A DNA stretch of 64,000 bases from a virus. The notes beneath the pieces are model-generated. The model searched no databases, was not told where the DNA came from, and saw only the letters and a list, made by a program, of their open reading frames with translations. Positions 5,435 to 52,870 of this stretch are shown here, in pieces. Position numbers and translations under genes: made by a program. The stretch lies in the IMG/VR virus record IMGVR_UViG_3300045988_173323; one strand, written 5' to 3'. The first letter of the stretch is position 1. The number at the start of each line of letters is the position of its first letter.

Positions 5435-7003
5435 TTAAAAAGCACTAACATCAGCCTTTTTTTCTTCTTTTGGCTTAACAGTGATTTTTAAATCTTCAAT
5501 AGGAATCAACTCATACTGGTAATTAGTTGCAAACATAGGAATAATTTTACAAGTACCTCTATTCGCCTTACACCACAATAAAATTCCTTTATATCTACCT
5601 CTACGATTTTTATAAACAGAAATTTTAATTAAAGGTATTTCAAACCCGCCTTGAGCTAAAACATTTTCTAAAGCCGTACGATCATCATTATCAACTTCAA
5701 GCATAATCATACCACAATCAATTTTATCCGCAATAGATTTAGCTCCTCTTAACAGATTCTGATCATACTGTTGAGCTGTTATATAACTACTATTTAACTG
5801 AGTTGCCGTCATAATAAAAATGCCATACTGATTACACATATCTTTTAAACGAATTGAAATCATAAAAAGGATATTATCCTCTCTTAACCCTCTCACTCCA
5901 GTTTTAGATGAAACTTCACTTAGAATCTTCATGCTTGTATGGATGTAATCGAAGAACACATATTTAACATCATATTCTCTAACTCCACGTTTAATAGTAT
6001 TCTCAATATCTTTTAAAGAAAAATCTGGTAATTGTTCTATATATAATGGACATCTCTTTAAAAGGTTTGCCGCATAAATAACACGTTCCCATTCTCCTGA
6101 ATAGTATTCTCCAGAGATGATATGCTCTTCATCTACATCAGATAAAAAAGCGATCATCATAGTCTGAATTTCATCTTTCTCTTGTTCTGTTGAAATAAAG
6201 ATTGTTGGTTCTTTAGTTCCATTTGGAATCCATTTTTCTTCTTTAGAATCATAAATTTCATCGCACGCAATAGAACATGCATCCGCAATCATCGCTCGTG
6301 TTTTTCCTACTCCTGTTGCGGCTGATCGCAAATAAAATTTCTTTAATCTAGCCCCTCTGGTTACAGTATTTATCAAGGGTCCGAATAGAGGATATCCTGC
6401 TTCAGGTGTCTCTTTTAAGCGTTCAAGTAGCTCTAATGCTCCATTACCTGCCAGCTCCGCACCATTAGAAGCATCATCTACATACTTTAATCTTATATCA
6501 GTAATTTTTTTGTCAATGATCTCTGCAATATCTTCAATAGATGAATTATCTAACCAATCCTCTTGAGCCTGCTTCTTCTTAACATCCATAATATTGTCTA
6601 TATCATATAACCATGATAAATCCATTCCTATATTTTGATACATTCTTAGCAAAGTCATCTTTTTCATCCTGCTATAATAAAAATCAAAAGCAGCTAATTG
6701 TACTGATTTACTTAATTTTTGAAGATATTCTTGTCCCTTATTAGCCTTATAAACTGCATAGCTTTTTGGTCTTTGCTCTAAATAATCTTCTATCGCATTG
6801 ATAGAAATTTCTTTAGCACCTAATTCATGTAAATTATATATAGACCCAAAAAGAATTTTATGAAATTCTTCTGTAAAATCTTCTTCATTAAAAAAGTATT
6901 TTCCATCTTCATCTAGTAAATTAGGGTTTAAATAAATCCCTCCAATAACTTGAATAATAGATGGAATGTCCACATATTTTCCCATTTTATTCTTCCTCCT
7001 CAC
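5435..7003 (-). CDS. Replicative DNA helicase, DnaB-like
   Basis: Walker A RSAATGVGKT, Walker B-like FFDYIHT, and IFIMTATQLNSS (the DnaB 'QLNR'-type motif). Confidence 0.7.
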   Translation of the reverse strand: MRRKNKMGKYVDIPSIIQVIGGIYLNPNLLDEDGKYFFNEEDFTEEFHKILFGSIYNLHELGAKEISINAIEDYLEQRPKSYAVYKANKGQEYLQKLSKSVQLAAFDFYYSRMKKMTLLRMYQNIGMDLSWLYDIDNIMDVKKKQAQEDWLDNSSIEDIAEIIDKKITDIRLKYVDDASNGAELAGNGALELLERLKETPEAGYPLFGPLINTVTRGARLKKFYLRSAATGVGKTRAMIADACSIACDEIYDSKEEKWIPNGTKEPTIFISTEQEKDEIQTMMIAFLSDVDEEHIISGEYYSGEWERVIYAANLLKRCPLYIEQLPDFSLKDIENTIKRGVREYDVKYVFFDYIHTSMKILSEVSSKTGVRGLREDNILFMISIRLKDMCNQYGIFIMTATQLNSSYITAQQYDQNLLRGAKSIADKIDCGMIMLEVDNDDRTALENVLAQGGFEIPLIKISVYKNRRGRYKGILLWCKANRGTCKIIPMFATNYQYELIPIEDLKITVKPKEEKKADVSAF

Positions 7004-7502
7004 TGTTTAAATTAAATAATCTCTTCATTTTTCGAATCGCGGAAGGAGGAGTAATTTCTATATATTTTATTTTAGGTTTATATTCTTCAATATTCTTATT
7101 TTCATTTGATAATTTCGCTAAATACAAGCTATAATAATATTGTAAAGCATCCTTGTATATAAAAGGGATAATACCAATCCCGCCATTCGCTTTTTCTATT
7201 GAATTTCCTTTAATTTCATAAAACCAAATCAAAGATTTTAACATTCCACTATAAGTATAATTATACATAGCTTTATAATCTTTAATTTGTTTTTTAATTC
7301 TAGCATTAATATAAGGTTCATCAAATAGTTTCATAATATATTGCTCTAATTTTTCTAAGTCTTGCTCTTCCTGGCTTTTTTCTTTTTGATTCTTTTCCGC
7401 ACATTCTTTATGTGCATATCTCCTTGCGGAAATTTGAGTTGTGTCTATTTTGTCTCTATCAAAACGTTTTTTACAATAAACGCACGTTACTAAATGAGCC
7501 AT
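6987..7502 (-). CDS. Hypothetical protein with N-terminal zinc ribbon
   Basis: CVYCKKRFDRD...RYAHKEC. This is paralogous to the N-terminus of the AAA+ ATPase at 33370-34572. Confidence 0.35.
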   Translation of the reverse strand: MAHLVTCVYCKKRFDRDKIDTTQISARRYAHKECAEKNQKEKSQEEQDLEKLEQYIMKLFDEPYINARIKKQIKDYKAMYNYTYSGMLKSLIWFYEIKGNSIEKANGGIGIIPFIYKDALQYYYSLYLAKLSNENKNIEEYKPKIKYIEITPPSAIRKMKRLFNLNSEEEE

Positions 7503-7568
7503 TTAAAACTCCTTAATTCTTTTATTATATTATAACATATTTTTTAATAAATATCAAAAAAGTGTGGA

Positions 7569-8510
7569 CTAATCCACACTTTTTACTAATTCTTTCAAGT
7601 CAGTAACAATTAAATCTAAAGCCTCAACTTGATCTCTTGAACATTGACTAACTTTCATACCTTTTCCTAAATATCTATCTGTAATTTGAACGATTCTAGG
7701 CTGCCAATATTCTTTAAATTCCTCATTAGATTTTTGCATGATTAAATCATTTACAATAGTATTGAAACTATTCAATAATTCATCAAAATCTAATTCCGCT
7801 CTTGTGTCTTTATATAAGTTTGATCTTTCGTCTGTAAAATACTCACTTCCATCTTCTTCCATTTGTTTATCAATAGCCATGCCAATAGCATCAACTAAGC
7901 TTTGATAATTAAAATCAATGTAATCTGGAGTATATTTAAAACGAGAGCCTGCAATATATCTTGGCGTTCCACGCATAAATAATTTAGTTGAAGTTTTACC
8001 TTCTTTATCTTGAATACTACGAGAGTAGCCTATAATATCGCACATTCGAGATACAATCGCTCTAGGTTTATTTCCTAAGGTAGGAACGATCTGATTATAC
8101 TCTTGACCTTGCTCATCTTTAAAAGTTTTATCTACTGAGTGACTAATTAAAACTAAACCGTAATCCATTTGAATAATAGAACGTAAACATTCATCATATT
8201 CTTTGGCGACTAGAGTATACCCTTTCCCAAAAGGAATATCACTAACAGAATCCACCCCAAAGCCGCCATCTGGTCTTTTTGCATTGGCACAAATATACTT
8301 TTCACACAAGTCATATGCGATATCTGCTGTATCCAGAATAATCGTTTCAAACTGTTCTTTTACTTTTTCATCTTTTAATTGTCTCAGCACTTTTCTAAAT
8401 TCCGCCCAAGTATTAATTGGCTGAGCCATTGCTCCAGGAATCGCGTTGTATCCTTTCTCAAAAGCCAGCAACAAGTGGCGTGGAAATTTGGTTGCGATTG
8501 TCGTTTTACC
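7569..8510 (-). CDS. AAA_24/Sak4-like phage ATPase, exon 2 (joins exon 1 at 9645-9734)
   Basis: The ORF begins abruptly inside the P-loop (..GKTTIATKF). Joining with the upstream exon reconstitutes FFYGEPKSGKTT. The RecA-like core matches phage Sak4/AAA_24 family proteins. Confidence 0.65.
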   Translation of the reverse strand, partial: GKTTIATKFPRHLLLAFEKGYNAIPGAMAQPINTWAEFRKVLRQLKDEKVKEQFETIILDTADIAYDLCEKYICANAKRPDGGFGVDSVSDIPFGKGYTLVAKEYDECLRSIIQMDYGLVLISHSVDKTFKDEQGQEYNQIVPTLGNKPRAIVSRMCDIIGYSRSIQDKEGKTSTKLFMRGTPRYIAGSRFKYTPDYIDFNYQSLVDAIGMAIDKQMEEDGSEYFTDERSNLYKDTRAELDFDELLNSFNTIVNDLIMQKSNEEFKEYWQPRIVQITDRYLGKGMKVSQCSRDQVEALDLIVTDLKELVKSVD

Positions 8511-9644
8511 CAATAGTTATTAACTGTAAGTTTTTTATCTTACACTCTGGAGATTTCTCTCATTTTCATCAGTTGGTTAATTCCAACCCAGTTTAGCATA
8601 GCTTCTCTTCCATTCTTTTATTTGGAAGTTGCAGACTCGTGGTTTTATTATATTCTAATATTTATTAGAAACAATACTACTGATATTGTTTCTTTGTAAC
8701 CATTTTTTATATTTGTAATATTTCCTTAGCAAGAAAATATCATTAAGACTATACATTTCATCAAGGATTTTTTTAGCATCTTTAGTAGAATAAGTTAATG
8801 TATAATAATTTTTTCTACTTTTATCTTTATATACTTCTTTATTATTACTACAGAGGAAACTTAAAATTCGAGCAAAATCTTTTAATAATTCTGGTCGATA
8901 AGAACAAATTTCAAGGCAACATGTAGTACCATTATCTTTAAAACAGCCATTTCCATCGAAATATCCTAAAATAAAACTTAATTGCTTACTAAAATCAAAA
9001 ATAGGTAATTCCATTTTTTTATAAGTTTTATTTGGAACAATTCCATACTTAGCTAATTGTTTTTTATGATTTTTACTACTCCAAGATAATTCAGATACTT
9101 TAAAACCATTATTAGTTTCATAATCTAAGATATCTCTTTCACTTTCTATCATTATTTTAATTTTTTCTAATATAGGTCTATCTACTGAACTTAATCCTAT
9201 TTTAATACGATTTCTGTTTTTTGAAACATTACCATCTGCTACTAAAAAACCTAATAACCAAGCTTTTTCATTAGAATCTATATTATCAAAATAATGATGA
9301 TTAACTTTAAGACCTTTTTCTTGATTTATTATTCTATTTTGCTCTGCTCTTGTCCGTATTTTAATTCCATTCTTTATAAGAATAGATTTAATTTTTCCCC
9401 CATATGTGTCATACTTATTTGCGATAAAGCTTAAAGATTTTCCTTCATTATATAATTTTATTATCTCTTGGATGTTCATATATGATACATGCCTTTCATA
9501 AATATTAGTTTCAAAAACTATGCGTTGCGTGTGTTATTCTTTTTAAAGAATAACTTCCCTTCGGATTCTCCTAATCTAATAGGATTCTTTCCGTTTTTTC
9601 TGCAATGTTTGCTCTATAATTACTTATAGAGAGAGCAGTTATTT
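8511..9644 (-). other. Group I intron (~1.13 kb) carrying a LAGLIDADG homing endonuclease ORF
   Basis: Exon 1 ends in U (..AAG AGU). The intron's last base is G (..UUG) before exon 2 GGU AAA ACG. Joining restores the Walker A GEPKSGKT. The flanks are non-coding and GC-richer, and the internal ORF is a homing endonuclease. Confidence 0.65.
8655..9479 (-). mobile_element. LAGLIDADG homing endonuclease (intron-encoded)
   Basis: Two LAGLIDADG motifs: LLGFLVADGNV and ILGYFDGNGCF. There is an N-terminal HTH-like region. Confidence 0.8.
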
Positions 9645-9734
9645 ACTCTTAGGCTCTCCATAGAAGAATACACTATATCCTCTTAAATCTCTTGATACTT
9701 GATGTGGTTTAATATTAAGTAAATCAATTCCCAT
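9645..9734 (-). CDS. AAA_24/Sak4-like ATPase, exon 1 (30 codons)
   Basis: Translation is MGIDLLNIKPHQVSRDLRGYSVFFYGEPKS. It continues in frame into exon 2 once the intron at 8511-9644 is removed. Confidence 0.6.
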
Positions 9735-9817
9735 AATTATCTTTCCTCTAACTTTCTTTATTTCTTTATTTATTTCTCATTAAATTAAATTAAATTGGGA
9801 GCTAAGCTCCCAATTTA

Positions 9818-10768
9818 TTAAAAGTTAAAACCGCCGCTGTTTACTGAAACAGTTGAGGCTTTAGGAGAAGAAGAATTGTTATTAGCAGCTTTCTGAGCCA
9901 AATACTCTTCTCTTCTCTTCTTAACCTCAGCAAGATGAACCTCTCTATTCTGCATAGCCTGAGTAACTTCTTCCGCAGTTAAAACTTTCTCATCTCCAAA
10001 ATCATATGGTACAAGAGATACTCCAATAATCTCCCATTCTTTTGATTTCTTCTCATAGCTTTTTACTGCTACTTCACCGCCAAAAGCTGATTCTTCTTTC
10101 TGTTCTACTACAATAGTTCTGCAATTAATTCTTCCCCACACTTTTGTAAATAAAGGTTCTGAAGAAGAAAAATCTAAATTCTCAAAATACTTAATACCTT
10201 CTGGATTTTTTAATACAAACTCTACTGGTAAAATATCATTTCTAAAATTAAAAACTGCCCCTCTGATTGTTAAGTAATCATTTAAAATACCTTTTTCCTC
10301 ATCTGCTTCCACTCTATTCATAGAAGTCATAAGCATATCTGTTGTAAAGGTATTTCTTTCATTTTCTTTACATAAATTACTAACAATAGTAACAAATCCA
10401 CCCTCATTAATCTTCTGTGATACTAAAGTGTCTTCATTAACATAGAAATCATTTAAAGCAAGAGCAGTATCAATTTTTACTTTCGTTGCCTCATCTTTTC
10501 CGTCTGTAATCCATGCTTTTCCTTCATCAATAATTTTCTTCAAAGCTGTATAAGTAGCGTTTTTCTTACCAGCTTTTGTTGTTTCTGTCACGTATGTAAA
10601 GTCTACTTTTACAATATTCATACCCTCTTCATCTACAGCTACACTTAATGTACCTGAAATGAATTCTTTTCCATAATTACTTGACTGCTGATTTTGAACT
10701 GTTTTAATTGTCAATTCATGCTCATATACTCTGCCCTCGATATGTTCTGTATTAATTGCTTTTTTCAT
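9818..10768 (-). CDS. Hypothetical protein, possibly ssDNA-binding (speculative)
   Basis: 316 aa with no catalytic motifs. It ends in a C-terminal GGFNF tail reminiscent of phage SSB C-termini, and it sits beside a Sak4-like gene. Confidence 0.25.
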   Translation of the reverse strand: MKKAINTEHIEGRVYEHELTIKTVQNQQSSNYGKEFISGTLSVAVDEEGMNIVKVDFTYVTETTKAGKKNATYTALKKIIDEGKAWITDGKDEATKVKIDTALALNDFYVNEDTLVSQKINEGGFVTIVSNLCKENERNTFTTDMLMTSMNRVEADEEKGILNDYLTIRGAVFNFRNDILPVEFVLKNPEGIKYFENLDFSSSEPLFTKVWGRINCRTIVVEQKEESAFGGEVAVKSYEKKSKEWEIIGVSLVPYDFGDEKVLTAEEVTQAMQNREVHLAEVKKRREEYLAQKAANNNSSSPKASTVSVNSGGFNF

Positions 10769-12016: not shown

Positions 12017-12829
12017 TTATTTATTTCCAGAAGTGCTATTATAGCCATAAATATCACTTTGATACATTTGAATCCAAAATTTTTCTTTTTCGTTTAATTC
12101 TGTTCTTGAACATTCTTCCATCAATTCAAAAGAAAAATTCCAAACACCATCTTGTTGCATTGCTTTATATAACTTATTTGTTGCGGAAGCATCTATTCCC
12201 AATCCGCATTTAACGTGCTGCTTAAATCTATCTTGAATATTAACGCTTTGTCCAATATAGCATTGTTTAGTTAATAAATTTGTAATTTTATAGATTCCGC
12301 ATTTAGTAGTAGTTCCTAATATCCTATTGCACATTTCAGTTGTTTGTTTTTGAAAATAAGTTGACCAAATAATTTTATTTAAAACAACAGGTTGATGAAA
12401 AGAAACTTTTATTTTATTTAATGCCATGATATCTGATAATTCATTATCTGTAATAGTTAATTTGTAAAAGTTAATTTCTTCTTCTTTTTCTCTTTCGCGG
12501 AGTTGAGCCTGTACGCCCGCACTCAGTGATTCTTTTATTTTATGTAAAGATTCATCAATTTCCTTTTTCTCTTTATCAGTCTTAGCTTTATATAAGTCAT
12601 ATTTTAATTCTATATCTTCATATGCTTTTTCTAATTCTAAAACATATTGTTCTTTTGCATATTTAATTTTATCTTTATAGCTGTTATATTCTTTTAGTTG
12701 ACTCTCTTTAAAATCATTTAATTGGTCTAATATATCATCTTTCTTTTGACAGAAAGATTTAAAAGCATCAGATTGTTGCTCTGTAAGTAAAGATAATTCT
12801 CTTTGCCTGCCTTTGATTTGCATTATCAA
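12017..12829 (-). CDS. Coiled-coil protein with C-terminal GIY-YIG nuclease domain
   Basis: CGIYKITNLLTKQCYIGQSVNIQDRFKQH at the C-terminus, with a long N-terminal coiled coil. An in-frame hydrophobic extension upstream of the ATG (IVYIIFFLFIISIIF) has no ATG start. Confidence 0.5.
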   Translation of the reverse strand: MIMQIKGRQRELSLLTEQQSDAFKSFCQKKDDILDQLNDFKESQLKEYNSYKDKIKYAKEQYVLELEKAYEDIELKYDLYKAKTDKEKKEIDESLHKIKESLSAGVQAQLREREKEEEINFYKLTITDNELSDIMALNKIKVSFHQPVVLNKIIWSTYFQKQTTEMCNRILGTTTKCGIYKITNLLTKQCYIGQSVNIQDRFKQHVKCGLGIDASATNKLYKAMQQDGVWNFSFELMEECSRTELNEKEKFWIQMYQSDIYGYNSTSGNK

Positions 12830-14801: not shown

Positions 14802-17144
14802 TTATAACTTAACAATAGAAGAAATCAAACTATTTTTTAACATAATATTTCCTATGCTTGTGCGGCTTAACTTAGGAATATCTTTTGTAGATATACATAT
14901 TGATTTTGGCTTTCCTACAATTAACAAGTTATCTGAATCATCGACCATACCTCCGCCAACAATCACTCCAGAAGTATCCGTAGTTTTATAAATGATAACT
15001 CCCTTTCCCGCTCTTTGCTGAAGTGGCAATTCCTCTAAAGATATTTTCTTTCCTAGACCTCTTGTTGTAACAATAGCTAAACAATCATCCTTCTTATTAA
15101 TTGGTAATCCCGCAATAACTTCATCATTTTCATCTAGCTTAATAGCTTTAACGCCCGCGGTAACTCGTCCAATAGGGTTGATTTCATCTGTAGGAAAATG
15201 GATAGCCATACCATTCTTTGTTATAACTATCATTTCTTCTTTTTCTATGAAAGTTACGTTAGCTAAAGAATCATTATTTTTTAAATTTATCGCGGCAATA
15301 CCTGTACTTCTCTTTACTTTTGTATATTCCTCTAAAGAAGTTTTCTTAATTAAACCTTGCTTAGTTATGAAAATAACATATTTTGCTTTTGTTTTTCTAT
15401 GCAAAGAAGTAATAGCAATAACTTTTTCATCTTTTTCTATATTTATTAAAGTGCCAATATTTATTCCTTTTGATAGATTAGTTCCAACTGGTATATTATC
15501 CACCAGAAGTCTATACATTTTACCTTTAGATGTAAAAATCATAAGAGTATCAATAGTATTAGTAGATATAACGTCTAATATGGCGTCATTTTCACTTTTG
15601 ACTCCTTTTCCATTCTTCTTCTGAACTTTAAAAGATTTTAAAGGAACTCTTTTAATATCTCCATTTTGAGCCGCAATAACAACTACATTTTCTGGAATAA
15701 TTTCTGCAACTTCTTTTTCTTCTGGCTTAATATCAATGTGAATTAATTCAGTTCTTCTGTCATCACCATACTTTTTTACTAGTGATTCTAATTTAGTTTT
15801 AATATCAGATAACTGCAATTCTCTATTTGAAATATGTAATTCCAATTCCGCAATTTTAATTAACAAGTCTTTCTTTTCGTTTTCAAGAGTTATTTTTTCC
15901 AAACGAGCTAAACTAGATAATCTCATTGCCAAAATGGATTTAGTTTGAATTTCAGACAGCTTATAAATTTCAATTAGTTTATTTTTCGCAGCTTCTGAAT
16001 TTTCTGACTTTTTAATTAAAGAGATTACATTATCAATGTCCTCTAAAGCTATCAAAAGACCTTCTACAATATGTAATCTATCTTTTGCTTTCTTTAAATC
16101 AAAAGTCAATTCTTTTTTTAAACATTCAATATTATGCTCTATATATATCTTACAACAGTCAGCTAAATTTAGCTCAGTTGGTACTTTATCAACTAAGGCG
16201 ACTTGATTATATGATATGCTTGTTTGAAGGTTTGTTTTAGAATAAAGCTTTTTTGCTATTGAATCTAAGTTCGAATCTTTTTTACACTCGATTACAAGTC
16301 TAATTCCTTTTTTGTTTGTTTCGTCGCGGATTTCAGAAATTCCTTCTATTTCTTTTGAATCACAAACCTCACCTATTTCAGTCAGTAACCCTTCAATAGT
16401 AGTTCCATAAGGAATTTCATAAAAGACAATGTTATTTTTTTCAATTTTATATTTTCCGCGGACTTTAACAGAACCATGTCCAGTTTTCATAATCTGCGGA
16501 ATATCTTTACTATTTATTATAATTCCACCTGTTGGAAAATCCGGTCCAGGTAAAAGAGGCTTTTTTCCGTCCATGTAATCATAAATAGCTTGTGCAACTT
16601 CCTTAAGGTTGTGCGGAAGCCAGTTACAGGCGATGGCAACTCCAATTCCAGTATTTGGGTTACACAGTAAGTTTGGAAAAATAGCTGGTAAGGTTACTGG
16701 TTCATCCAGAGTTTCATCATAATTTTGAATAAAATCAACATTTTTCTTTTTTAATCCAGATAATAAGCCATCTTCTGCAATTTTACTTAATCTTGCTTCT
16801 GTATAACGAGATGCAGCAGGTCCATCTCCTGCAATATTTCCGTTATTACCATGCCAGTCAATAAGAGGGTATCGCAATATCCAGTTTTGAGAGAGACGGA
16901 CTAAAGCACCGTAGATTGAACTATCTCCGTGCGGATGATATTTACCCATGACGTCTCCTACTATTCTAGCACTTTTAATATGAGGTTTAGAAAAAGTTCT
17001 TCCCTCTTCAAAAGCTGACCATAAGATTCTCTTTGCAACAGGTTTTAAACCTGACTTTGCATCAGGAATTGCTCTATCGGTATTAACTGCAACTGCATAC
17101 TCTATAAAGTTCGTACCAAGTTCTTGCTTTATATCATTCTGCAT
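14802..17144 (-). CDS. Type II DNA topoisomerase, A (GyrA/ParC/T4 gp52-like) subunit
   Basis: N-terminal AVAVNTDRAIPDAKSGLKPVAKRILWS, HPHGD..IYGALVRL, and the catalytic Tyr region ARYTEARL. Confidence 0.85.
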   Translation of the reverse strand: MQNDIKQELGTNFIEYAVAVNTDRAIPDAKSGLKPVAKRILWSAFEEGRTFSKPHIKSARIVGDVMGKYHPHGDSSIYGALVRLSQNWILRYPLIDWHGNNGNIAGDGPAASRYTEARLSKIAEDGLLSGLKKKNVDFIQNYDETLDEPVTLPAIFPNLLCNPNTGIGVAIACNWLPHNLKEVAQAIYDYMDGKKPLLPGPDFPTGGIIINSKDIPQIMKTGHGSVKVRGKYKIEKNNIVFYEIPYGTTIEGLLTEIGEVCDSKEIEGISEIRDETNKKGIRLVIECKKDSNLDSIAKKLYSKTNLQTSISYNQVALVDKVPTELNLADCCKIYIEHNIECLKKELTFDLKKAKDRLHIVEGLLIALEDIDNVISLIKKSENSEAAKNKLIEIYKLSEIQTKSILAMRLSSLARLEKITLENEKKDLLIKIAELELHISNRELQLSDIKTKLESLVKKYGDDRRTELIHIDIKPEEKEVAEIIPENVVVIAAQNGDIKRVPLKSFKVQKKNGKGVKSENDAILDVISTNTIDTLMIFTSKGKMYRLLVDNIPVGTNLSKGINIGTLINIEKDEKVIAITSLHRKTKAKYVIFITKQGLIKKTSLEEYTKVKRSTGIAAINLKNNDSLANVTFIEKEEMIVITKNGMAIHFPTDEINPIGRVTAGVKAIKLDENDEVIAGLPINKKDDCLAIVTTRGLGKKISLEELPLQQRAGKGVIIYKTTDTSGVIVGGGMVDDSDNLLIVGKPKSICISTKDIPKLSRTSIGNIMLKNSLISSIVKL

Positions 17145-17786: not shown

Positions 17787-18189
17787 TTACTCAGCATTAT
17801 ATGTTGCCTCCTGCGAATGTTCTTTAATATACGCTTTTCTTGCAGTTACCCCATTTCCCATTAACTGTTCAAAAAGAATTGAAGTTGCACTAACATCTTC
17901 AACTGTAATTTGTCTGATAATTCTTTTCTCAGGATCTGTTAAAGTTTCTTCTGTCTCGTCTACTGACATTTCACCTAATCCCTTCATACGCCCAACCAAA
18001 TACTTCTTTCCTGCATTGGCTTTTTTAAATGCCTCTAATTCTTCATCATTTTTTAAGTATTTATATTCTTTTCCAATAGTAATTTTGTATAAAGGTGGAA
18101 CTCCCGCGTAAACATATCCATCCTTTATAAGTTCTGGACAAAAGTTCCATATAAATGTATAGAAAAGATTTTTGATGTGAGCACCATCA
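17787..18189 (-). CDS. Type II topoisomerase B (GyrB/T4 gp39-like) subunit, exon 2 (C-terminal part)
   Basis: DGAHIKNLFYTFIW...KGLGEM... is the C-terminal half of the TOPRIM domain (DxDxDGsHI) and the GyrB tail. Confidence 0.8.
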
Positions 18190-19283
18190 CGTGTTGTTCC
18201 CATGTTTTCATCGGCACTGACTATCTCTTACTCAATTAATACAAATTAAGGAGACCATTTCGACATTTAACTAGCTTCGTTGCCTAGAACTAGACTACGT
18301 ATCAATAGTAGCTCTACTTCCCTGCCCAGAAGGCTTAGGGAATAGTCGATACAGGTTCAAATATTTATCCATTTTTTTTCTTTTTTCTTATATATTGGAA
18401 GATTGCTATAATATCTTCCCCATAGGATTTGTTGAAACGATTGATAAGATATACGTTCCTTATAATCCTGATAAATCTGTTTTGCACTTTCTACTACATA
18501 TCGCTTTCTAATCAAAATTACTTCTTCATCAGAAAGTTTAGCAGAAGCACTATTTCCACCTTTGCTATTCTCATACATATAATATTTTTTATTTTCTTCG
18601 GTAAAAACTTCTGGCATTATATGCGACCAAGCTTTTCCTTGCCAGAGATTTTGAAAATAGCTAAATGAAATTTTATCTTTATAATCTTCATAAACATCTT
18701 TTTGTTTAAGATGATTATTATATGCCTTTCGTATGTTAATAACATCTTCTTCGGTTAATTTAGCCCGTCCGTTATTTTTTCCAATGGACTGTTGATTTCC
18801 ACCTTCTGAACAGTTATATCCATTTTTAATGGCATTTAATTTTTTAATCCAATATTCTTCTTTAGCATTAAGGTCATCTATAGAACATTCTTCTAAAATT
18901 TCATAATCAAAATTATCTGCACCATATTTCTGTATAGCAACATCTACTGGAATTCTATTTTTTTCACCAGCTATTTTATGCTCTTGAAATCTTCTTTGAA
19001 TATTATTTGATTGACCTATATATATTTTATTGTTAGTTTTATTTGTTATTTTATAAATTCCTATCATCTTTAATTCTCCTTCATTTTTATTTTTGAAAGA
19101 GAATGAATAAATATTTGTTTCCCACGGGATTACCATATCTTGCTCAAGGACTTAGGATTCCCCGTTAGCAAAAATTTTCTCTTTCATATTTATATGAGAA
19201 CCATATGGATCACATAAATATGTTTTGACCAAAATTTTTACCCGCTTGATTAAGCGAAAAGTCTTTCATACGCCGTATTACTG
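18190..19283 (-). other. Group I intron (~1.09 kb) carrying a GIY-YIG homing endonuclease
   Basis: Exon 1 ends ..GAC GU (U before the splice site). The intron ends ..AACACG (terminal G). Joining gives the in-frame DADVDGAHI, matching the GyrB TOPRIM motif DADVDGSHI. Boundaries are good to about 2 nt. Confidence 0.65.
18357..19136 (-). mobile_element. GIY-YIG homing endonuclease (intron-encoded), with NUMOD-like C-terminal repeats
   Basis: IGIYKITNKTNNKIYIGQSNNIQRRFQEH at the N-terminus. Confidence 0.8.
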
Positions 19284-20788
19284 ACGTCCGCATCTGACAT
19301 TATAATTATTTTACCATATCTTAAATCTTCTTTATCGTAAGTTACTTTCATAGTTTTAGGATCAATTTTAAGTCCAAAAGCATCAATCATAGTCATAATT
19401 TCAGCATTTTTCTGAATTTGAGTTAGGGTAGCTTTTTGACAATTTAAAATTTTTCCTCTTACAGGCATAACTGCCTGAAACTCGTTATTTCGTGCTGTTT
19501 TCAAATTACCTGAAGCACTATCACCCTCAGTCACGTATATTTCGCACTTCATTCTGTCCTTTGAATAACAATCAGCAAGTTTTGAGTTAAATTTTAAAAC
19601 TTTTTCTTTCTTCTTCTTTTCTTTTTCTCTCGCAAGTTCTCTTGCTTTTTTCGCGGCTTCACTTGCCTTTTTCGCGGCGATTGCTTTATCAAAAATTACC
19701 TTAATCTCTTTTTCATTTAACAAAAGCCACTCTTGGACACTTTCTGCAATAATGCCAGTAAAAGGTGTCATATCAAGTTTTACAATTCTGGATTTAGTCT
19801 GAGCGTCATAAGATACCCCTGGAGCTGTAATATTAAAAGCTACTATTAGCCCCTCTTGAATAGCAGTGCCTTCTAAATTATCATCTTTAGTCTTTAACCA
19901 TTTTTTTTCTCTAAAGAATTTATTAAATTCTCTAGTAATTAAAGATTTAATCTGTGTAATATGCGGTCCTGCATCTGTCTCTCCTGTATTAACATAAGAA
20001 ATCATATTCATTGAATAATTATTTGTATATGTTAATACTAAATCAATTTTATTTTTACCATTGCTATGTTTAATATATAATCTATTGTTAATGATTTCAG
20101 TGTTCTTAACTTTATCTGAAACTAAATCATCAAGACCATTTTTTGAAACATATTTAATAGCATCTTTTCCATTGTGAGTTAAATTGATTGTTAATCCAGG
20201 ACATAAACAGACCAATACGTGAAATAATTCTTTTATTCTTTTTTCATCTATCTCCGCATGATTAAAAAACTGCTTATCAGGCTTCCAAGAAACAATAGTT
20301 CCAGTATGGTGTTCCCCTTGATTACCAAGTTCTCGTTTTTCAAAAATACCATCTTTGAACCAAATTGTCTCAAACTTTCCGTCTCTGAAGGTTTGTACTT
20401 TTAGCTGAGACGCTAAGAAATTTGTTAATTTACTACCAATTCCGTTCAAACCCAAAGCTGTACCTTCATAAACGCCATCTTCTGAAAACTTACCAGAAGT
20501 ATTTAAAACATCAAAAGAAGCTTGCAAAACGCTTTCCCCATCTTCTCTCATAATATTTACTGGAAAGCCTTGAGCAAAATCTTCTACTGTACAAGAGCCA
20601 TCATCCTTATAATCTACATTTATTATGTTTCCATTTCCCGCTTGAAACTCATCAATAGCATTAGATACAATCTCAATCAATAGCTGAGTTGAATACTCTG
20701 TCGACCCACAATAAACTCCAGGTCTAAGTCGCGTAAACTCCCGCGGGCTTAATGATTCTATTGACTTCTCATTATATAAATTGCCCAT
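19284..20788 (-). CDS. Type II topoisomerase B subunit, exon 1 (GHKL ATPase + start of TOPRIM)
   Basis: GHKL ATPase motifs (EIVSNAIDE, GLNGIGSK), a transducer region, and TOPRIM EIYVTEGDSA...IIIMSDADV. The ORF stops just after DADV. Confidence 0.8.
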
Positions 20789-47890: not shown

Positions 47891-48027
47891 ATATACAAGG
47901 CTTACTTGTTTATTTAATTTTTAAGAGTAAATAAACTAAATCTCTTTTTATAGCTTTACATTTCTATAAAACTATCTCATCAACTATATTATCGTATAAT
48001 TGCTGCATAAAATAAGCCTTTATTTAT

Positions 48028-48372
48028 TTATTCTAAATTTGAAAGCAGTTCAGCAAGTGCATCTTCTGCTCTCTGTTCCAGGATTTCCGCATCGTTAATA
48101 TAAGCAGACATTTCTTCAAGATGCTCTGATGCTTTATTATATATTTCAATCGCTTCTTTAAATTTACCAGAAGCTCTTTCAACTCTTTTCTTCGCAATTT
48201 TTGCATTACATCTCGCAGCGGCAAGAGTTTTTCCTTTCTCCAAGTCAAATGTATCTTTTGGATTACATTTTGCTTTTCCTTTAACAATTTTTCCCGCGTA
48301 TGTAGAAACCGCGACAACAAGATTTTTTGAAGTATAAAACTTATATTTACTTATATCCAGGTCTGTAAACAT
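48028..48372 (-). CDS. Hypothetical protein
   Basis: 114-aa ORF with an RBS/promoter cassette upstream at 48391-48440. Confidence 0.3.
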   Translation of the reverse strand: MFTDLDISKYKFYTSKNLVVAVSTYAGKIVKGKAKCNPKDTFDLEKGKTLAAARCNAKIAKKRVERASGKFKEAIEIYNKASEHLEEMSAYINDAEILEQRAEDALAELLSNLE

Positions 48373-48433
48373 ATCATCAATCTCCTTTTCTTTTGATATA
48401 ATAATTATATCATAATTTTTTTATTTTTTCAAG

Positions 48434-48522
48434 CGTGCGGTAGAGGATTCGAACCTCTGGACCAGGGCTTCCTGGTCGGTGGATTAGCAATCCACTGCAA
48501 TCAGCCTCTCTGCCAACCGCAC
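48434..48522 (-). tRNA. tRNA-Ser(GCU)
   Basis: Acceptor GTGCGGT/ACCGCAC, anticodon arm GTGGA-TTGCTAA-TCCAC, long variable arm CGACCAGGAAGCCCTGGTC, T-arm AGAGGTTCGAATCCTCT. Confidence 0.75.
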
Positions 48523-48525
48523 AGA

Positions 48526-48598
48526 TAGGGAAAGTAGGTAACGATCCTACATCCTAGGATTTTCAGTCCTATGCTTTTACCATATAAGCTATTTCCCT
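48526..48598 (-). tRNA. tRNA-Phe(GAA) with an atypical T-loop (ATCGTTA)
   Basis: Acceptor AGGGAAA/TTTCCCT and anticodon arm TAGGA-CTGAAAA-TCCTA. Confidence 0.6.
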
Positions 48599-48808
48599 GA
48601 GCTGTTACTGTTTTATTTTATTGTGAGAAAACAGTACAAAAAACTCGGCTCATCTAATTTAATTTCTAAAAACTTAAGCTTAAGTGTCTTTACGAGAAAG
48701 CTAGATGCGGTTGCTTATGAAGAATTCCAAATCTTCTCTTTCTTTCTCTTAAAGAAATAATTTAATTTTCTAATTTTCTATGGTGTTGCTATTATTTTTA
48801 CCATAGAA

Positions 48809-48881
48809 TACGGGAAGTGGGACTCGAACCCACAAAATTGAGTTCCTAAGACTCACGCGTATGCCATTCCGCCATTCCCGC
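48809..48881 (-). tRNA. Class-I (short variable loop, 72-73 nt) tRNA with anticodon UAG; Leu-like D-arm but lacking the long variable arm
   Basis: Anticodon arm TGAGT-CTTAGGA-ACTCA. The D-arm TGGCGGAATGGCATACGC is identical to that of tRNA-Leu(CAA) at 49028-49106. The variable region is only ATTTT. T-arm GTGGGTTCGAGTCCCAC. Confidence 0.5.
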
Positions 48882-49027
48882 ATAGTGTAGGTAACCTTCG
48901 CAGAAACCTACTGACTTGCCGATAACTTACATAGTCTCGTATATCTCTTACGCTGAACTATCCTCTCTCCGCAAATACTACCGTAAGGTATAACACCCTG
49001 TTGAGATATTTATAACGAAGGTTTTAA

Positions 49028-49106
49028 TGCTCCTATTGGGATTTGAACCCAAATGATTTCTCCGTAGCTTTTGAGACTACTGCGTATGCCATTCCGCCAT
49101 AAGAGC
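49028..49106 (-). tRNA. tRNA-Leu(CAA)
   Basis: Anticodon arm GTAGT-CTCAAAA-GCTAC, a ~12-nt variable arm, T-arm TTGGGTTCAAATCCCAA. Confidence 0.65.
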
Positions 49107-49110
49107 TTAA

Positions 49111-49195
49111 TGAAGGTGGTGGGATTCGAACCCACAATGTTTCTAATGTAGCGGATTTTAAGTCCGCTCTGTCTCGCCAGTTGCAGCACACCTCC
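49111..49195 (-). tRNA. tRNA-Leu(UAA), copy 1
   Basis: Anticodon arm GCGGA-CTTAAAA-TCCGC, long variable arm, T-arm GTGGGTTCGAATCCCAC. Confidence 0.7.
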
Positions 49196-49282
49196 AAATG
49201 AAGAGTTTTAAACTCTTCAGTTTGTTAATTTATTGTAAGGGAATTAACACCATAAAGGAAGGAAAACAGTTTCATGAACGAA

Positions 49283-49364
49283 TGGGCGTGGTGGGATTCG
49301 AACCCACATAGTTCTAAACCAGCGGATTTTAAGTCCGCCACGTATACCTTTCCGTCACACACCC
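49283..49364 (-). tRNA. tRNA-Leu(UAA), copy 2
   Basis: Same anticodon arm, with a different acceptor (GGGTGTG) and D-arm. Long variable arm. Confidence 0.65.
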
Positions 49365-49694
49365 AAAATGGATAGATTCAAAGGCTCTTTACTCCCCGAG
49401 AGGATAAAACCTTAATATTAAGCATTGACATTAAAGGCTTTGCTAATAGAAAGCTATATCTATCCAACTTTCAAGACAAAAGATTTAATTTATCAGTCTG
49501 TAAAATTATTTAATTATTTGATTATTTGATATTTTAATTATAATGGACGTCCGCAGTACTTTTTGACAGGCACTTCTGCCTCCACGATTTAACCGAATCG
49601 CTCGGACAAGAAAACTCACTTGCGTTGCACATCTATTGTCTGCCCATATGCTTTGACTATCGTAGGTTTTTAAAAAGTAAGCCTATAAACTTGA

Positions 49695-49768
49695 TGCTTA
49701 AGAATGGATTTGAACCACCGACCTCATGTTTATCAGACATGTGCTCTAACCAACTGAGCTACTTAAGC
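49695..49768 (-). tRNA. tRNA-Ile(GAU)
   Basis: Acceptor GCTTAAG/CTTAAGC, D-arm TAGCTCAGTTGGTTAGAGC, anticodon arm CATGT-CTGATAA-ACATG. Confidence 0.75.
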
Positions 49769-50231
49769 TTATATTTCTTTTCTTTTCTTTTGATATATTT
49801 ATTATATCATAATTTTTTATTTTTTTCAAATTATTTTTAGAGCCTATGCTATATGTTTACACCACCGCCACCTAAATAGTCGCTACCTTGCTCAGAAAGA
49901 GGAATTTAATATTTTGTTTTTACAGAAAGGTACAAAATAAACCTATGTCATTTTATAACACAATTTAAAGAAAGAGGTGTGCAACACTAGTTTTTTGCAC
50001 TCACGGCATTTAGGCATCCGCGTTTCATATGACGTCATCTAGTTTTTGCCATGCTTCTATTTTTTAGCCATATTAGCAAAAGATAAGAGAAACACTAACG
50101 AATCTTACTTTCACCCACATTCGGGAACGGTTTCCTAATTCAAACCGCTAAAGTCACTTCATCTCGCATGAAGAGCGTTTGTTCTTATTTACTAATAACT
50201 TCCTAGGTTTATCTGTAAATAAAAGACAAAA

Positions 50232-50305
50232 TTGCGGCGGGTGGGATTCGAACCCACGACCTCTTGGTTATGAGCCAAGCGAGCTTCCAGACTGCTCTAC
50301 CCCGC
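50232..50305 (-). tRNA. tRNA-Met(CAU), initiator-like features; acceptor stem imperfect
   Basis: 5' CGCGGGG, D-arm GAGCAGTCTGGAAGCTC, anticodon loop CTCATAA, and T-arm GGTCGTGGGTTCGAATCCCAC resemble E. coli tRNA-fMet. The 3' acceptor CCGCCGC does not pair cleanly. Confidence 0.5.
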
Positions 50306-50309
50306 GATA

Positions 50310-50539
50310 TTAAAATCTTCCGAGAAAATTTCCCAATTCATCAAAATCAAAACCTACTGGTTCTCTTTCATAACCATTCGCAATCATAAAAGAAACTCTG
50401 GAAGCGGGTAAGGAAGAATACTGCTTTTTTAATTCAGTAAAATCCTTATCAAGAAAATCTTCTACAATAAAAGGACTATTGTGACAAGCAGATTGAATCA
50501 ATTTGATTCCACCAAGTAATTTTTCTTTGTCAGTCATAA
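50310..50539 (-). CDS. Hypothetical protein (start reassigned to MTDKEKLLGG; the listed N-terminal extension overlaps a tRNA-like sequence)
   Basis: GGAGAAAAATCTT-ATG RBS. Confidence 0.3.
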
Positions 50540-50642
50540 GATTTTTCTCCTTTTTTACAAGACAGTTTATTTTAGGTTTATAAGAATTAAAAGTTCTTTC
50601 CTTGAAATTTGAAATAATATAATTGTTTGCAGTATCTGTCTT

Positions 50643-50716
50643 AAAATCACACCAGCGAGACTTGAACCCAGCATTACGACCTTGAAAGGGTCGCGTCCTT
50701 ACCATTAGACCACGGA
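50643..50716 (-). ncRNA. Chimeric/degenerate tRNA-Glu(UUC)-like element
   Basis: Good anticodon arm CGACC-CTTTCAA-GGTCG. The T-stem 5' strand (CTGGG) does not pair with the 3' strand (CTCGC), and the 5' end GCGGCTC does not pair with the 3' TGGTGTG. The 3' portion from the T-loop onward is identical to tRNA-Glu at 51063-51136 within a ~110-bp repeat. Confidence 0.35.
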
Positions 50717-50920
50717 GCCGCATATTTGTACTGGGATTCAAACTCAGGTTCTCAGGTTCTCAGGTTCTCAGAATTAGTCTTGACTGCTTGACTATAAAGC
50801 CAAAAACTTATTACTCTTCTTCAAGCTCCTCATTCATAACTGATTCCCAATATTCAGCATCATCATAAAACTCTTCACACTGAGGACCTAAGTCAAAATC
50901 ATCAAACATAAATATCATTT

Positions 50921-50990
50921 CCTTTCTTTCTTTTGATATATTTATTATATCATATATTTTTTAAAAAATCAATTAAGATTTTTTAATTTA
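50921..50990 (-). promoter_or_regulatory. Repeated sigmaA-type promoter cassette (full-length copy)
   Basis: TTTCTTTCTTTTGATATATTTATTATATCATATATTTTTTAAAAAATCAATTAAGATTTTTT. Confidence 0.5.
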
Positions 50991-51062
50991 CAAGACAGAT
51001 TTATTAGATCTATAAGAATTTTAAGTTCTTTTAAAAATAATATTGCAGTATCTGTCTTAAAA

Positions 51063-51136
51063 TCACACCAGCGAGACTTGAACTCGCGTCTGAAGCTTGA
51101 AAGGCTTCTATCCTGTACCTACTAGACGATGGTGTG
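51063..51136 (-). tRNA. tRNA-Glu(UUC)
   Basis: Acceptor CACACCA/TGGTGTG, anticodon arm GAAGC-CTTTCAA-GCTTC, T-arm GCGAGTTCAAGTCTCGC. Confidence 0.7.
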
Positions 51137-51203
51137 TTTCTTTTCTTTTGATATATTTATTATATCATATATTTTTAAAAAAATCAATTAAGATTTTTTT
51201 CAA

Positions 51204-51277
51204 TCACTCTTAACAGGCTCGAACTGTTATCTTTACCTTGAGAGGGTAATATCCTATTCCTTTTAGACGAAAGAGTG
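51204..51277 (-). tRNA. tRNA-Glu(CUC)
   Basis: Acceptor CACTCTT/AAGAGTG, anticodon arm TTACC-CTCTCAA-GGTAA, T-arm AACAGTTCGAGCCTGTT. Confidence 0.65.
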
Positions 51278-51504
51278 TTATAATATGTGCGATCAGCTTT
51301 AACGCACTTGATGCTTATTAAGTTGGTATTATAAGCATCTTTCATACAAATGGTATTACCAACAGTCATTTATACAAAGTTTTCCCTTTGATCTAATGAC
51401 TAGCTTGACATTCAAGTCTACCGCATCCTCGCGGACTAACTTCATTAGCTTTTAACCAGGTCTATCACAGTTAAGGAGTTTTATGTGTGTTCCTTCGCAC
51501 AGCG

Positions 51505-51587
51505 TGGGCGGTGATGGAGTCGAACCATCCGAGACCGAAGCCATCAGTTTTACAGACTGACCCGCTACCCCTACGGTATAACCACCC
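51505..51587 (-). tRNA. tRNA-Tyr(GUA), copy 1
   Basis: Anticodon arm TCAGT-CTGTAAA-ACTGA, long variable arm, T-arm GATGGTTCGACTCCATC. Confidence 0.65.
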
Positions 51588-51592
51588 AAATT

Positions 51593-51946
51593 TTAAATAC
51601 AATTAATTTTATCAAACATTGGTGCATAACTTTTAACATGATTATGTGTTAAAACGCCCATTAAAGCTTCATTTTCATTTTCTTCTACGATAAAGATACG
51701 AGCCGTATCTGTCGTAATTGCTTGTCTACCTCTTGGAGCAGTTAATAGTTTAGCACATCTTTCAACTCTTTGCATGTCAGTAGTATTAACCTTCCATTCT
51801 TCCTCTAGAACTAACTACTACAAAAACAGGCATATTGTTTTTAATCTTTGGTTTTACATCAAGAATTCTACCACACCAGTTAATATCATATTCTTCATGT
51901 ACATCTGTTACTACTAAATGCGTTTTTACTAATACTTCCGCCATCT
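51593..51946 (-). CDS. Two short adjacent ORFs (51785-51946 and 51593-51775) that may be one gene split by a frameshift
   Basis: MAEVLVKTHLVVTDVHEEYD...SSRGRMEG* then ..VNTTDMQRVERCAKLL... The frames overlap by about 30 nt. The function is unknown. Confidence 0.25.
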
Positions 51947-52169
51947 TATCACTCCTTAAAAGAATTGAAAAAATTCATTATATCTTCATTTACCTTTCTA
52001 GTTTCAATATCTTTACCTTTTGGTGCAGGCTTAGACTGATGAAAAGGATGCTGCTCTTTCCAACAAGATAAAAAATGCTTTGTCAATTTTTGCTCCTCTT
52101 GAAATCTTCTGTGACAAGTTGGACATATGTACATTTTATACTCTCCTTTTGTATATATTCATGTACTAA

Positions 52170-52241
52170 CTGGGGTAGCTGGATTTGAACCAGCGAATAC
52201 AGCAGTCAAAGTGCTGTGCCTTACCGCTTGGCGATACCCCA
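52170..52241 (-). tRNA. tRNA-Gln(UUG), copy 1
   Basis: Acceptor TGGGGTA/TACCCCA with G73, anticodon arm CAGCA-CTTTGAC-TGCTG, T-arm GCTGGTTCAAATCCAGC. Confidence 0.75.
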
Positions 52242-52577
52242 TTATTCTGAAGCATGGGACTTACCTAGAACGTTCCCTCACAGACAAGCTTCTGTGCCAT
52301 CCCCGCGTGTTTTCAGTTTTTTATTGAGTCATGCGGCAAACATACACGGTTTCAAGCCAGGACTCTGTAATTTCGAGATATATTTTATATATTTGATTAA
52401 AGCTCAAATCTAAAATTATTTGCTGTATATATCTCTCTTTACTTTATATAATTATTATATAATATTTTAATTTAAAAATCAATTAAAATATTATTCTGAG
52501 AATGAGGAACTCAAATGTATAAATCATAGTAATATTAATATACCTTACTACTTGGTATTACCTCATCTCAAACTGCC

Positions 52578-52650
52578 CCGGTGGGGATCGAACCCACAAC
52601 ACGCTGGTTAATCAGAAGTTGAGATTTGAACTCAAATATTTTTCCCATTG
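52578..52650 (-). ncRNA. Degenerate tRNA-like fragments (two T-arm hairpins without a complete cloverleaf)
   Basis: GTGGGTTCGATCCCCAC and TTGAGTTCAAATCTCAA. No acceptor or anticodon arms could be paired. Confidence 0.25.
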
Positions 52651-52870
52651 CTCATCAGTGTATTTATCAATTCCTTTTTTATTTTATAAATATAAAGAAT
52701 TAACATTATGAGTTAATCACTGTTGACCATAGTTCAAATGCATTACTTATGCTACTCCCGCACAGCCAGCCGTTCTACCATTGGACTACAGGGCATTAAA
52801 ATGTTACAAGATGCTCTTATTAAATTTTTTCGCCTATACAGAAAATCATTGCTGTATTGCATCTTTAATA

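Follow-up and report, generated by a model that had tools for sequence, protein, structure and literature searches.

A mobile, subgroup IA-like group I intron most probably interrupts the Walker A motif of a Sak4-like ATPase gene in a phage from the IMG/VR database (record IMGVR_UViG_3300045988_173323), where it is predicted to splice and to home; the probability of this reading is about 0.9. The record was analyzed as a stretch of 64,000 nt (the window), a large AT-rich phage segment with nearly all genes on the minus strand, and the locus runs on that strand from 9734 to 7569. The initial annotation, which gave only the extent of the whole locus (7569-9734), had described a Sak4/AAA_24-like gene that is split by a group I intron encoding a LAGLIDADG homing endonuclease. 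The insert is now delimited to 9644..8511, and its 1,134 nt agree with the 1.13 kb proposed at the time.

The interrupted ATPase gene and its intronless alleles

The upstream open reading frame (ORF; 9734..9639, 31 codons) reads MGIDLLNIKPHQVSRDLRGYSVFFYGEPKS-K-stop, and the downstream ORF (8513..7569, 314 codons) starts with TTG and reads (M)GKTTIATKFPR.... Joining T 9645 to G 8510 in silico yields a protein of 343 aa (...FFYGEPKS^GKTT...; carets mark junctions and insertion points) with an intact Walker A motif, GEPKSGKT. Within GxxxxGK[ST], the codons separated by the break are those for Ser and Gly, just where the initial annotation had placed it by joining a 30-codon exon that ends in FFYGEPKS to a frame that begins in the middle of the P-loop (GKTT). 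The spliced product matches the Pfam family AAA_24 with 128 bits (cut-off 27) over profile positions 2-195 of 195 and PHROG 124 ("Sak4-like ssDNA annealing protein"; 1e-49). By family match, the host gene is a Sak4/AAA_24-type (SPbeta YorG-type) ATPase gene, with a predicted annealing activity.

A megablast search of the locus against cultured phages gave no match. A tblastn search of the same phages with the spliced product found one-piece matches in Enterococcus phages of the VRE9/EF1 group (residues 3-341, 52% identity) and in YorG of SPbeta (residues 1-339). The alignment with the Sak4-like protein of Enterococcus phage VRE9_4 and with SPbeta YorG is gap-free across the junction, the stretch FYGEPKSGKTT being identical to that of VRE9_4, and G26, G31, K32, and T33 of the restored motif are invariant in the homologue alignment. 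The gene order of the locus (yorF-like, Sak4-like, yorH-like, DnaB-like helicase) is that of SPbeta and the Enterococcus VRE9 phages. The window gene differs from the other members of the family in being interrupted, and its identity to the proteins of cultured phages is only 31-52%. The homologues are single genes, which is the opposite of what would be found if the N-terminal exon were an independent gene, the outcome that the initial annotation had named as grounds for rejecting its proposal.

The frame of exon 1 meets a TAA two codons into the insert, followed by many further stop codons, and no Shine-Dalgarno sequence can be read upstream of the TTG at 8513, so that there is no alternative route to the ATPase protein. 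A scan of positions 7400-10000 found promoter-like sites to be no commoner than in shuffled sequence, and none was positioned for separate expression of the endonuclease.

When the product spliced in silico was used as the query against a large collection of proteins, intact alleles (P0001-P0005) were retrieved, which are uninterrupted proteins of 343 aa with 98-99% amino acid identity to the query, encoded on contigs of up to 134 kb. The existence of these alleles shows that the joined frame is not a chance reading. The same search returned many proteins of 301-314 aa (96-100% identity) that cover exon 2 only. In the DNA of five intronless alleles (L130-L134), the sequence is contiguous exactly across the predicted junction (...CCTAAGAGT^GGTAAAACG...), which is the outcome of the comparison with intronless homologues that the initial annotation had recommended. 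In longer stretches, the junction reads ...GAGCCTAAGAGT^GGTAAAACGAC... or ...GGAGAGCCTAAGAGT^GGTAAAACGAC..., and the predicted ligated exon junction of the intron-bearing allele is GAGCCTAAGAGT^GGTAAAACGACAATCGCAACCAAA. The exon 2 bases ACA and AAA (positions +12 and +24) are markers of that allele, by which spliced RNA can be told from intronless DNA. Compared with the intronless alleles, the window is longer at the junction by exactly 1,134 bp, with neither a target duplication nor a missing base, and its exon 1 is identical to their 5' part. The boundaries cannot be shifted because the bases flanking the junction differ; they fix an insert that follows a U and ends in a G, as had been proposed.

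Over 1,032 nt, the spliced coding sequence is 97% identical to the intronless alleles, with 27-28 synonymous and 3-4 non-synonymous differences. The resulting ratio of non-synonymous to synonymous substitution rates (dN/dS) of 0.024-0.034 covers both exons; apart from the insertion, the gene is intact and subject to strong purifying selection. The interrupted form, represented by the gene calls of 301-314 aa, occurs on approximately 190 contigs, compared with approximately 12 for the intact form (sums of the listed contig counts). Because the interrupted form is the majority form and is strongly constrained, it must still make the ATPase protein. The insert is thus present or absent at one site in close relatives, with precise boundaries and shared gene order, which is the polymorphism characteristic of a mobile intron. 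Signs of co-conversion were not found in the exons, where the number of differences within 30 nt of the junction (2-3) is not enriched over the approximately 2 expected.

Public gene callers (L128, L129, and P0023-P0058) render the locus as an ORF of 31 aa, an endonuclease, and an AAA_24 protein of 286 aa or 301-314 aa that lacks the P-loop. One of these AAA_24 fragments bears the name "ATP-binding protein [Megamonas funiformis]", a possible clue to the host.

The predicted intron RNA and its endonuclease

The elements assigned to the locus are listed in Table 1. The intron begins with AAAUAACUGCUCU... and ends with ...AAUAACUAUUG.

Table 1. Elements of the interrupted Sak4-like gene and its predicted intron, in coordinates of the window.
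Element	Position	Strand	Details
Exon 1 of the Sak4-like (AAA_24) ATPase gene	9734..9645	minus	ATG at 9734; 30 codons; ends GAG CCT AAG AGT (G-E-P-K-S); final RNA base U
Group I intron between the exons (predicted)	9644..8511	minus	1,134 nt; final base G
Internal guide sequence GCUCU (P1 3' strand)	9636..9632	minus	Pairs with exon 1 end AGAGU (9649..9645); U(9645).G(9636) at the splice site
5' ribozyme half	9631..9480	minus	Alignment and pair counts; RNAfold
P2	9631-9612	minus	8 bp, GUAA loop
P3 5' strand UUGCAG	9605-9600	minus	Pairs with CUGCAA, 8634-8629
P4/P5/P6/P6a, then J6/7 CGCAAC	in 9631..9480	minus	
P7 5' strand GCAUA	9523-9519	minus	Pairs with UAUGC, 8600-8596
Extra helix after P7, GUUUU/AAAAC	5' strand in 5' half, 3' strand in 3' half	minus	
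ORF-enclosing stem, 11 bp	9508-9498 and 8665-8655	minus	5' strand CUAAUAUUUAU; 3' strand AUAAAUAUUAG
Intron ORF, putative LAGLIDADG homing endonuclease	9479..8655	minus	274 aa; Pfam, PHROG, homologue alignment, PDB profile match
3' ribozyme half	8654..8511	minus	AAAAC, CACGAG, P3' CUGCAA (8634-8629), P8 CUUCCA/UGGAAG, J8/7 AGAAGC
3' ribozyme half, continued	to 8511	minus	P7' UAUGC (8600-8596), P9, P9.1 (GAGA-GAAA-UCUC), P9.2, terminal G 8511
Exon 2 of the Sak4-like gene	8510..7569	minus	Begins GGT AAA ACG ACA (G-K-T-T); 313 codons and stop
Terminator-like hairpin	7584-7557	minus	After exon 2

The P1 pairing is supported by related introns, in which the guide at the homologous position varies together with the end of the upstream exon. 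The guide and exon end are GCCGU and AUGGU in intron 2 of AR9 gyrA, GCCGU and UUGGU in gyrA of phage phiR1-37, GCCAC and GUGGU in the relative L013, GCUCU and AGAGU in the relative L045, and GUCC(C)GC and GCGGAU in terL of a Clostridium perfringens phage. The base before the intron is a U in all seven members checked, and each of them has a guide that fits its exon end. The ACU immediately 5' of the window guide can pair with the GGU of exon 2 to form a P10 of only 3 bp; in L013, the GUUUU preceding the guide pairs with the start of exon 2 (AAAAC) in a P10 of 5 bp. At the opposite end, the last inserted base is a G whose position is fixed by the intronless alleles, and the same terminal G is present in L013, L045, both introns of AR9, phiR1-37, and the C. 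perfringens phage, with the intron end fixed by exon reconstruction.

Covariation was assessed in 20 ORF-less family members and the window intron without its ORF, with helices assigned by hand and pairs counted where the alignment was reliable. The 41 pairs in nine helices are 99.7% paired, and 25 of them show changes on both sides; when the partner strand is slid by 1-3 columns, pairing falls to 29-45%. Two-sided changes affect all six pairs of the long-range helix P3, two of four in P4, both pairs counted in P6, and four of five in the extra helix after P7, and P9 and P9.2 of the same alignment covary as well. P7 is invariant among the 21 sequences, but when all copies are considered, 60 have GCAUA/UAUGC and 20 have GCGUA/UACGC, an exchange of A-U for G-C, and in none of these 80 copies is either of the two common 5' strands paired with the 3' strand of the other.

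P3 and P7 interlock as a pseudoknot, and the elements follow one another in the order P1, P2, P3, P4-P6, P7, extra helix or helices, P3', P8, P7', and P9-P9.2. This is the order of group I introns, with the addition of subgroup IA between P7 and P3', where the extra helix encloses the second stem that holds the ORF. A group I core, consisting of P3-P8 with the P3/P7 pseudoknot and the P4-P6 domain, is present and supported by covariation. RNAfold recovered P2, P4, P5, P6a, the ORF-enclosing stem, P8, P9, P9.1, and P9.2 from the ORF-deleted window intron (306 nt; z = -8.7). Family profiles built without the window matched both flanks of the ORF in nhmmer searches (9639-9509, E=4e-6; 8654-8511, E=5e-28), the second match ending on the terminal G; the same profiles found no further copy of this ribozyme family in the window. 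The group I assignment of the initial annotation is therefore borne out by the P1 guide, the terminal G, the covarying P3/P7 pseudoknot, P4-P6, the extra helix, and P9-P9.2.

The protein predicted from the intron ORF matches the Pfam family LAGLIDADG_3 in two stretches (59.6 bits, cut-off 22.5) and PHROG 4645 over its full length. Its two motifs are WLLGFLVADG and FILGYFDGNG; the corresponding regions of 14 homologues are KAYWLGFLxADG (with G77, D82, and G83 invariant) and FIRGYFDGDG (G172, D175, G176, and G178), with one conserved acidic residue, D82 or D175, in each motif. A single-sequence phmmer search against the Protein Data Bank (PDB) gave no match for this protein, and the family profile was needed to detect the solved structures of 2DCH, I-AniI, I-HjeMI, and I-DmoI, which it matches over both halves (e.g., profile positions 57-242 with residues 7-234 of I-AniI). 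The double motif, the invariant Asp residues, and the match to solved structures point to a monomeric two-motif LAGLIDADG enzyme, as initially proposed. It shares with these enzymes the two motifs per chain and the acidic residue in each, but the similarity is remote, and the window enzyme is phage-encoded, whereas the others are from an organelle or archaeon. It also has an additional N-terminal segment of approximately 60 residues, which by inspection looks like a helix-turn-helix DNA-binding extension. A single-sequence AlphaFold2 model was discarded (pLDDT 36, pTM 0.23).

The 11-bp stem between P7 and P3' carries the endonuclease ORF in its loop, and the stop codon of the ORF falls within the 3' strand of this stem. 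Homologues with approximately 30% identity, including g328 of phiR1-37, are encoded at approximately 30 loci that carry the same ribozyme family. The position of the ORF varies, being in the P1 loop in phiR1-37, and 76 of the 85 family copies for which both halves were found have no ORF between P7 and P3'. These positions fit the usual picture that endonuclease genes invade ribozymes independently. A candidate homing target is provided by the intronless allele L131 (...GAGCCTAAGAGTGGCAAAACGACGATC...), where cleavage by the enzyme would be expected.

Related introns and recurrent insertion

In a lower-stringency blastn search, the last 100-150 nt of the insert were 78-83% identical to gyrA of phages AR9/PBS1 and phiR1-37 and to terL of Clostridium phage vB_CpeS-1181. 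In AR9/PBS1, introns of the family lie inside a split gyrA that its authors annotated as a three-piece join; gyrA of phiR1-37 is split around g328, and terL of the C. perfringens phage vB_CpeS-1181 around an ORF. In each of these members, the split gene becomes whole once the intron is removed. Their introns have the same helices and the conserved junctions CGCAAC-GCAUA, AAAAGAUAUGC, and GAUGAAAAUGAGNGAAANCUCCAGAG, and as in the window, the base before the 5' splice site is a U and the last intron base is a G; phiR1-37 also encodes a homologous LAGLIDADG protein (g328). They differ in host gene, insertion site, and guide (GCCGU, compared with GCUCU in the window), and both intron copies in AR9 gyrA are ORF-less, unlike that of the window. 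The gyrA gene of the window itself (14802-17144, minus strand) is intact; the family interrupts gyrA of AR9/PBS1 and phiR1-37 at IIG^xYHPHG.

Sak4-type genes of other viral contigs contain further members. The diverged relative L045, whose Sak4 exons have 81-93% protein identity to those of the window, has an intron of 1,096 nt at the same S^G site. Its endonuclease is intact (267 aa, 53-55% identical to that of the window), and its ribozyme shows compensatory changes in P3 (from UUGCAG/CUGCAA to UUUCGG/CCGAAA) and in the helix after P7. The Sak4 genes of L013 and L079 are only 38% identical to that of the window. L013 (1961-3207) has an ORF-less family member of 290 nt located three bases downstream of the window site, between the Gly and Lys codons of the P-loop. 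Because insertions occur both at S^G (window and L045) and at G^K (L013), the ATP-binding loop of Sak4-type genes is a repeated target of these introns. Homing elements prefer the most conserved coding sequences, and the repeated insertion into the Sak4 P-loop is in line with this preference.

A related intron is found at the FG^KGY site of another Sak4 homologue (L062, reverse strand, approximately 6545-8594 in reverse-complement coordinates), with a guide (GCCCC) that pairs with the exon end GGGGU; its endonuclease may be decaying because the LAGLIDADG frame holds two stop codons. At positions 6785-6932 of L045, approximately 190 nt into exon 2, the Sak4 homology stops in the Walker B region (IIIDTA^), and the signature of the same ribozyme family begins (P4/P5 and CGCAACGCATAG, then a ribosome-binding site and ATG) before the contig ends, which makes a second intron in the same gene possible. 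Separate insertion points in Sak4-type genes thus number at least three, two of them in the P-loop (S^G and G^K) and one at FG^KGY, and Walker B may hold a fourth.

A peripheral motif of 26 bases that lies in the 3' half of the intron (GATGAAAATGAGNGAAANCTCCAGAG) occurs without mismatch in at least 120 IMG/VR contigs, and cultured phages account for 14 records of the family; this ribozyme clade is common in viral metagenomes and rare among cultured phages. It is plausible, though short of an even chance, that these introns form a large and tightly conserved group I clade of phages, represented in Bacillus and Yersinia jumbo phages, a crAss-like phage, and the present gut phage, that is essentially invisible to curated models and repeatedly targets the most conserved codons of ATPases and topoisomerases.

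Group I introns with homing endonucleases in DNA-metabolism genes of phages have been known since T4, whose td intron homes into intronless alleles. Like the window intron, the introns of T4 td (with I-TevI, group IA2) and nrdB reside in genes of DNA or nucleotide metabolism, have a looped-out endonuclease gene, and possess extra helices between P7 and P3' as well as P9.1/P9.2 extensions. There is also a likeness to td in the junctions, with AAC before P7 in the window and UAAC-GACUA in td, and AAAAGAUAU-GC in the window and GAGAU-AUAGUC in td. However, the T4 introns encode GIY-YIG or HNH endonucleases instead of a LAGLIDADG enzyme, and the ORF of td is located in P6a. Because an nhmmer search of the T4 td/nrdB locus with the family profiles found nothing significant, homology to the classical T4 introns cannot be shown by sequence.

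Other homing elements are also present in the window. The gyrB gene (17787-20788, minus strand) is split by a predicted intron of 1,094 nt (19283..18190) that follows a U, ends in a G, and contains the element AGAUAGUC. Exon 1 (ORF 19250-20788) ends with ...IIIMSDADV at 19284, and exon 2 continues from 18189 with (V)DGAHIKNL (ORF 17787-18203, the C-terminal domain of GyrB), so that their junction restores the universal Toprim motif DADVDGxHI; the insert holds a GIY-YIG homing endonuclease ORF (18357-19136). This insert has no match with Rfam or with the profile of the Sak4 intron, and it is probably a second group I intron that belongs to a different family. A free-standing GIY-YIG endonuclease gene is located upstream of thyX (12017-12829, minus strand). 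The otherwise syntenic intronless contigs L130, L131, and L133 have a GIY-YIG+NUMOD gene (1244-1984) between a gene for a 125-aa protein and yorF, which the window lacks. Endonuclease genes therefore form a presence/absence mosaic in this phage lineage.

In the region 30725-37195 (minus strand), an ORF of 814 aa matches Pfam MVP_shoulder (7e-22) and the vault repeat (8e-10) and is followed by genes for an AAA_5 ATPase, a DUF7192 protein, and an SPFH/flotillin-like protein, a vault-like/SPFH set that is unusual in a phage. The regions 26091-30369, 38735-39310, 41733-43214, and 43310-57737 (minus strand) contain a group of neighboring RNA-repair-like genes (an RNA ligase, an AAA_33 kinase, and three metallophosphoesterases), and a gene for a DUF2828/DUF7788 protein adjoins an array of 32 tRNA genes in the same regions. 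A further tRNA-like Rfam match of 57 nt (43493-43549) was not reported by ARAGORN.

Alternative readings and implications

Several points weigh against a self-splicing group I intron at this site. Splicing is deduced from DNA sequence, and the literature searched, whose scope did not include the AR9 genome paper, contained no experimentally tested member of the ribozyme family; a paper on AR9 transcription touches on introns just briefly. P7 and the short P9.0 vary little, so that one covarying pair supports P7 and none supports P9.0. The helices between P7 and P3' may be P7.1/P7.2 or P7.1/P7.1a, and the subgroup may accordingly be IA2 or IA3. With the Rfam covariance models (cmscan), there was no match to Intron_gpI at the locus (E<=1) and no match to any intron family in the whole window at gathering scores, and kilobase stretches of four related loci (AR9, phiR1-37, and relatives from C. 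perfringens phages) likewise gave no match to Intron_gpI. The window intron thus does not reach the gathering score of the curated model (RF00028; 50). A search of only the 321 nt around the ORF-less intron of L013 yielded Intron_gpI as the only family with E<0.05 (E=0.005), but its 19.9 bits are far below that score.

The alignment of L013 with Intron_gpI nevertheless places P1-P6 and the element before P7 as in the assignment by hand. Moreover, in a control with T4, the proven td intron obtained 40.3 bits, likewise short of the gathering score and with only its 3' half sensibly aligned, and the proven nrdB intron was missed altogether. The negative Rfam result is weighed lightly because the model misses or under-scores proven introns of T4; it is insensitive to this kind of intron. 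The same difficulty has been encountered with introns of Bastillevirinae phages, whose endonuclease-interrupted IA-type ribozymes are only partly detected by covariance models (PMC11878797). Those introns differ from the present one in being located mainly in genes for DNA polymerase, ribonucleotide reductase, and terminase; Sak4 is not mentioned.

In the proposed mechanism, the end of exon 1 (AGAGU) would pair with the guide (GCUCU) in the transcript to form P1, and free guanosine bound in P7 would attack after U 9645. The terminal G 8511 would then take the same site, where the freed exon 1 would attack, and the ligated exons would provide an mRNA for the full 343-aa ATPase with the motif GEPKSGKT restored. 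The endonuclease would be translated from the loop of the peripheral stem between P7 and P3' and would cut near AGT^GGT in the intronless alleles of relatives that infect the same cell; with the intron-bearing copy as the template for repair, the intron would spread by homing.

An unlikely variant of this mechanism is that the ribozyme is not self-sufficient and requires either its own LAGLIDADG protein as a maturase, as in the case of I-AniI, or a host factor, so that expression of the ATPase would be conditional. The profile match of the endonuclease family to I-AniI, a known endonuclease/maturase, is in favor of such a dependence, as are the single mismatch in P6 of the window intron and its short P10. 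However, the core helices of the window intron are all intact, and the ORF-less copies in gyrA of AR9 and in the Sak4 gene of L013 have no intron protein of their own. The abundance of ORF-less copies indicates that no resident protein is needed for the RNA to persist, but the autonomy of every copy does not follow from it. That the insertion is dead or does not splice, and that the phage tolerates the loss of the inactivated gene, is very improbable. Although splicing is read from DNA and public gene callers annotate nothing but fragments, such an insertion is at odds with a dN/dS of about 0.025 across both exons, with the prevalence of the intron-bearing form, and with the intactness of all ribozyme helices; in the diverged relative L045, moreover, the two exons and the endonuclease ORF have been retained around the same insertion site, together with compensatory pairs in the ribozyme.

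Extremely improbable, too, is a split gene of the kind known from certain T4-type phages, with the ATPase divided by a free-standing homing endonuclease gene into two polypeptides that come together again. An ORF can be read from the TTG at 8513, and a 31-codon ORF lies upstream, but the TTG lacks a ribosome-binding site, and the break is inside a P-loop, which must be one continuous strand-loop-helix. Furthermore, approximately 300 nt of conserved and covarying RNA flank the endonuclease ORF, and their retention would make no sense for a free-standing gene. Intervening sequences of other classes have next to no chance of explaining the locus, being refuted by the sequence itself. Inteins often occur in P-loops and often contain LAGLIDADG domains, but the insert is not in frame and contains stop codons from two codons in, and the endonuclease ORF starts independently, in another context. 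Group II introns are marked by a six-domain RNA with domain V, by GUGYG...AY ends, and usually by a reverse transcriptase ORF; the insert has the ends AAAUA...UAUUG, its approximately 300 nt of non-coding sequence are too little for six domains, and the Rfam scan of the window gave no match to group II families, although group II introns with LAGLIDADG genes have been reported (PMC13190283). A translational bypass is rejected because 1,134 nt are far beyond any known case. Even taken together, the pseudogene, split-protein, intein, and group II readings are quite improbable, which leaves the mobile group I intron as the preferred interpretation.

The literature searched contained no description of an intron in a Sak4-type gene. 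As far as this literature goes, the phage Sak4-type gene and its Walker A site are new as a location of group I introns, although the kind of mobile element is well known; the finding leaves the knowledge of how group I introns or homing endonucleases work unchanged and will not surprise the specialist. Once the intron is recognized, the recombination/replication ATPase of a common lineage of gut phages becomes complete. Intron-bearing and intronless alleles that are 97% identical coexist here with a defined homing site and an intact LAGLIDADG enzyme of putative homing activity, a natural experiment that would lend itself to work on homing during co-infection or on a new meganuclease specificity. 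The locus also reveals a widespread family of phage introns that escapes a standard Rfam scan. If these introns indeed form a conserved clade that curated models fail to see, the intron content of phages in metagenomes would be substantially under-counted, and many "truncated" phage replication genes would actually be intact.

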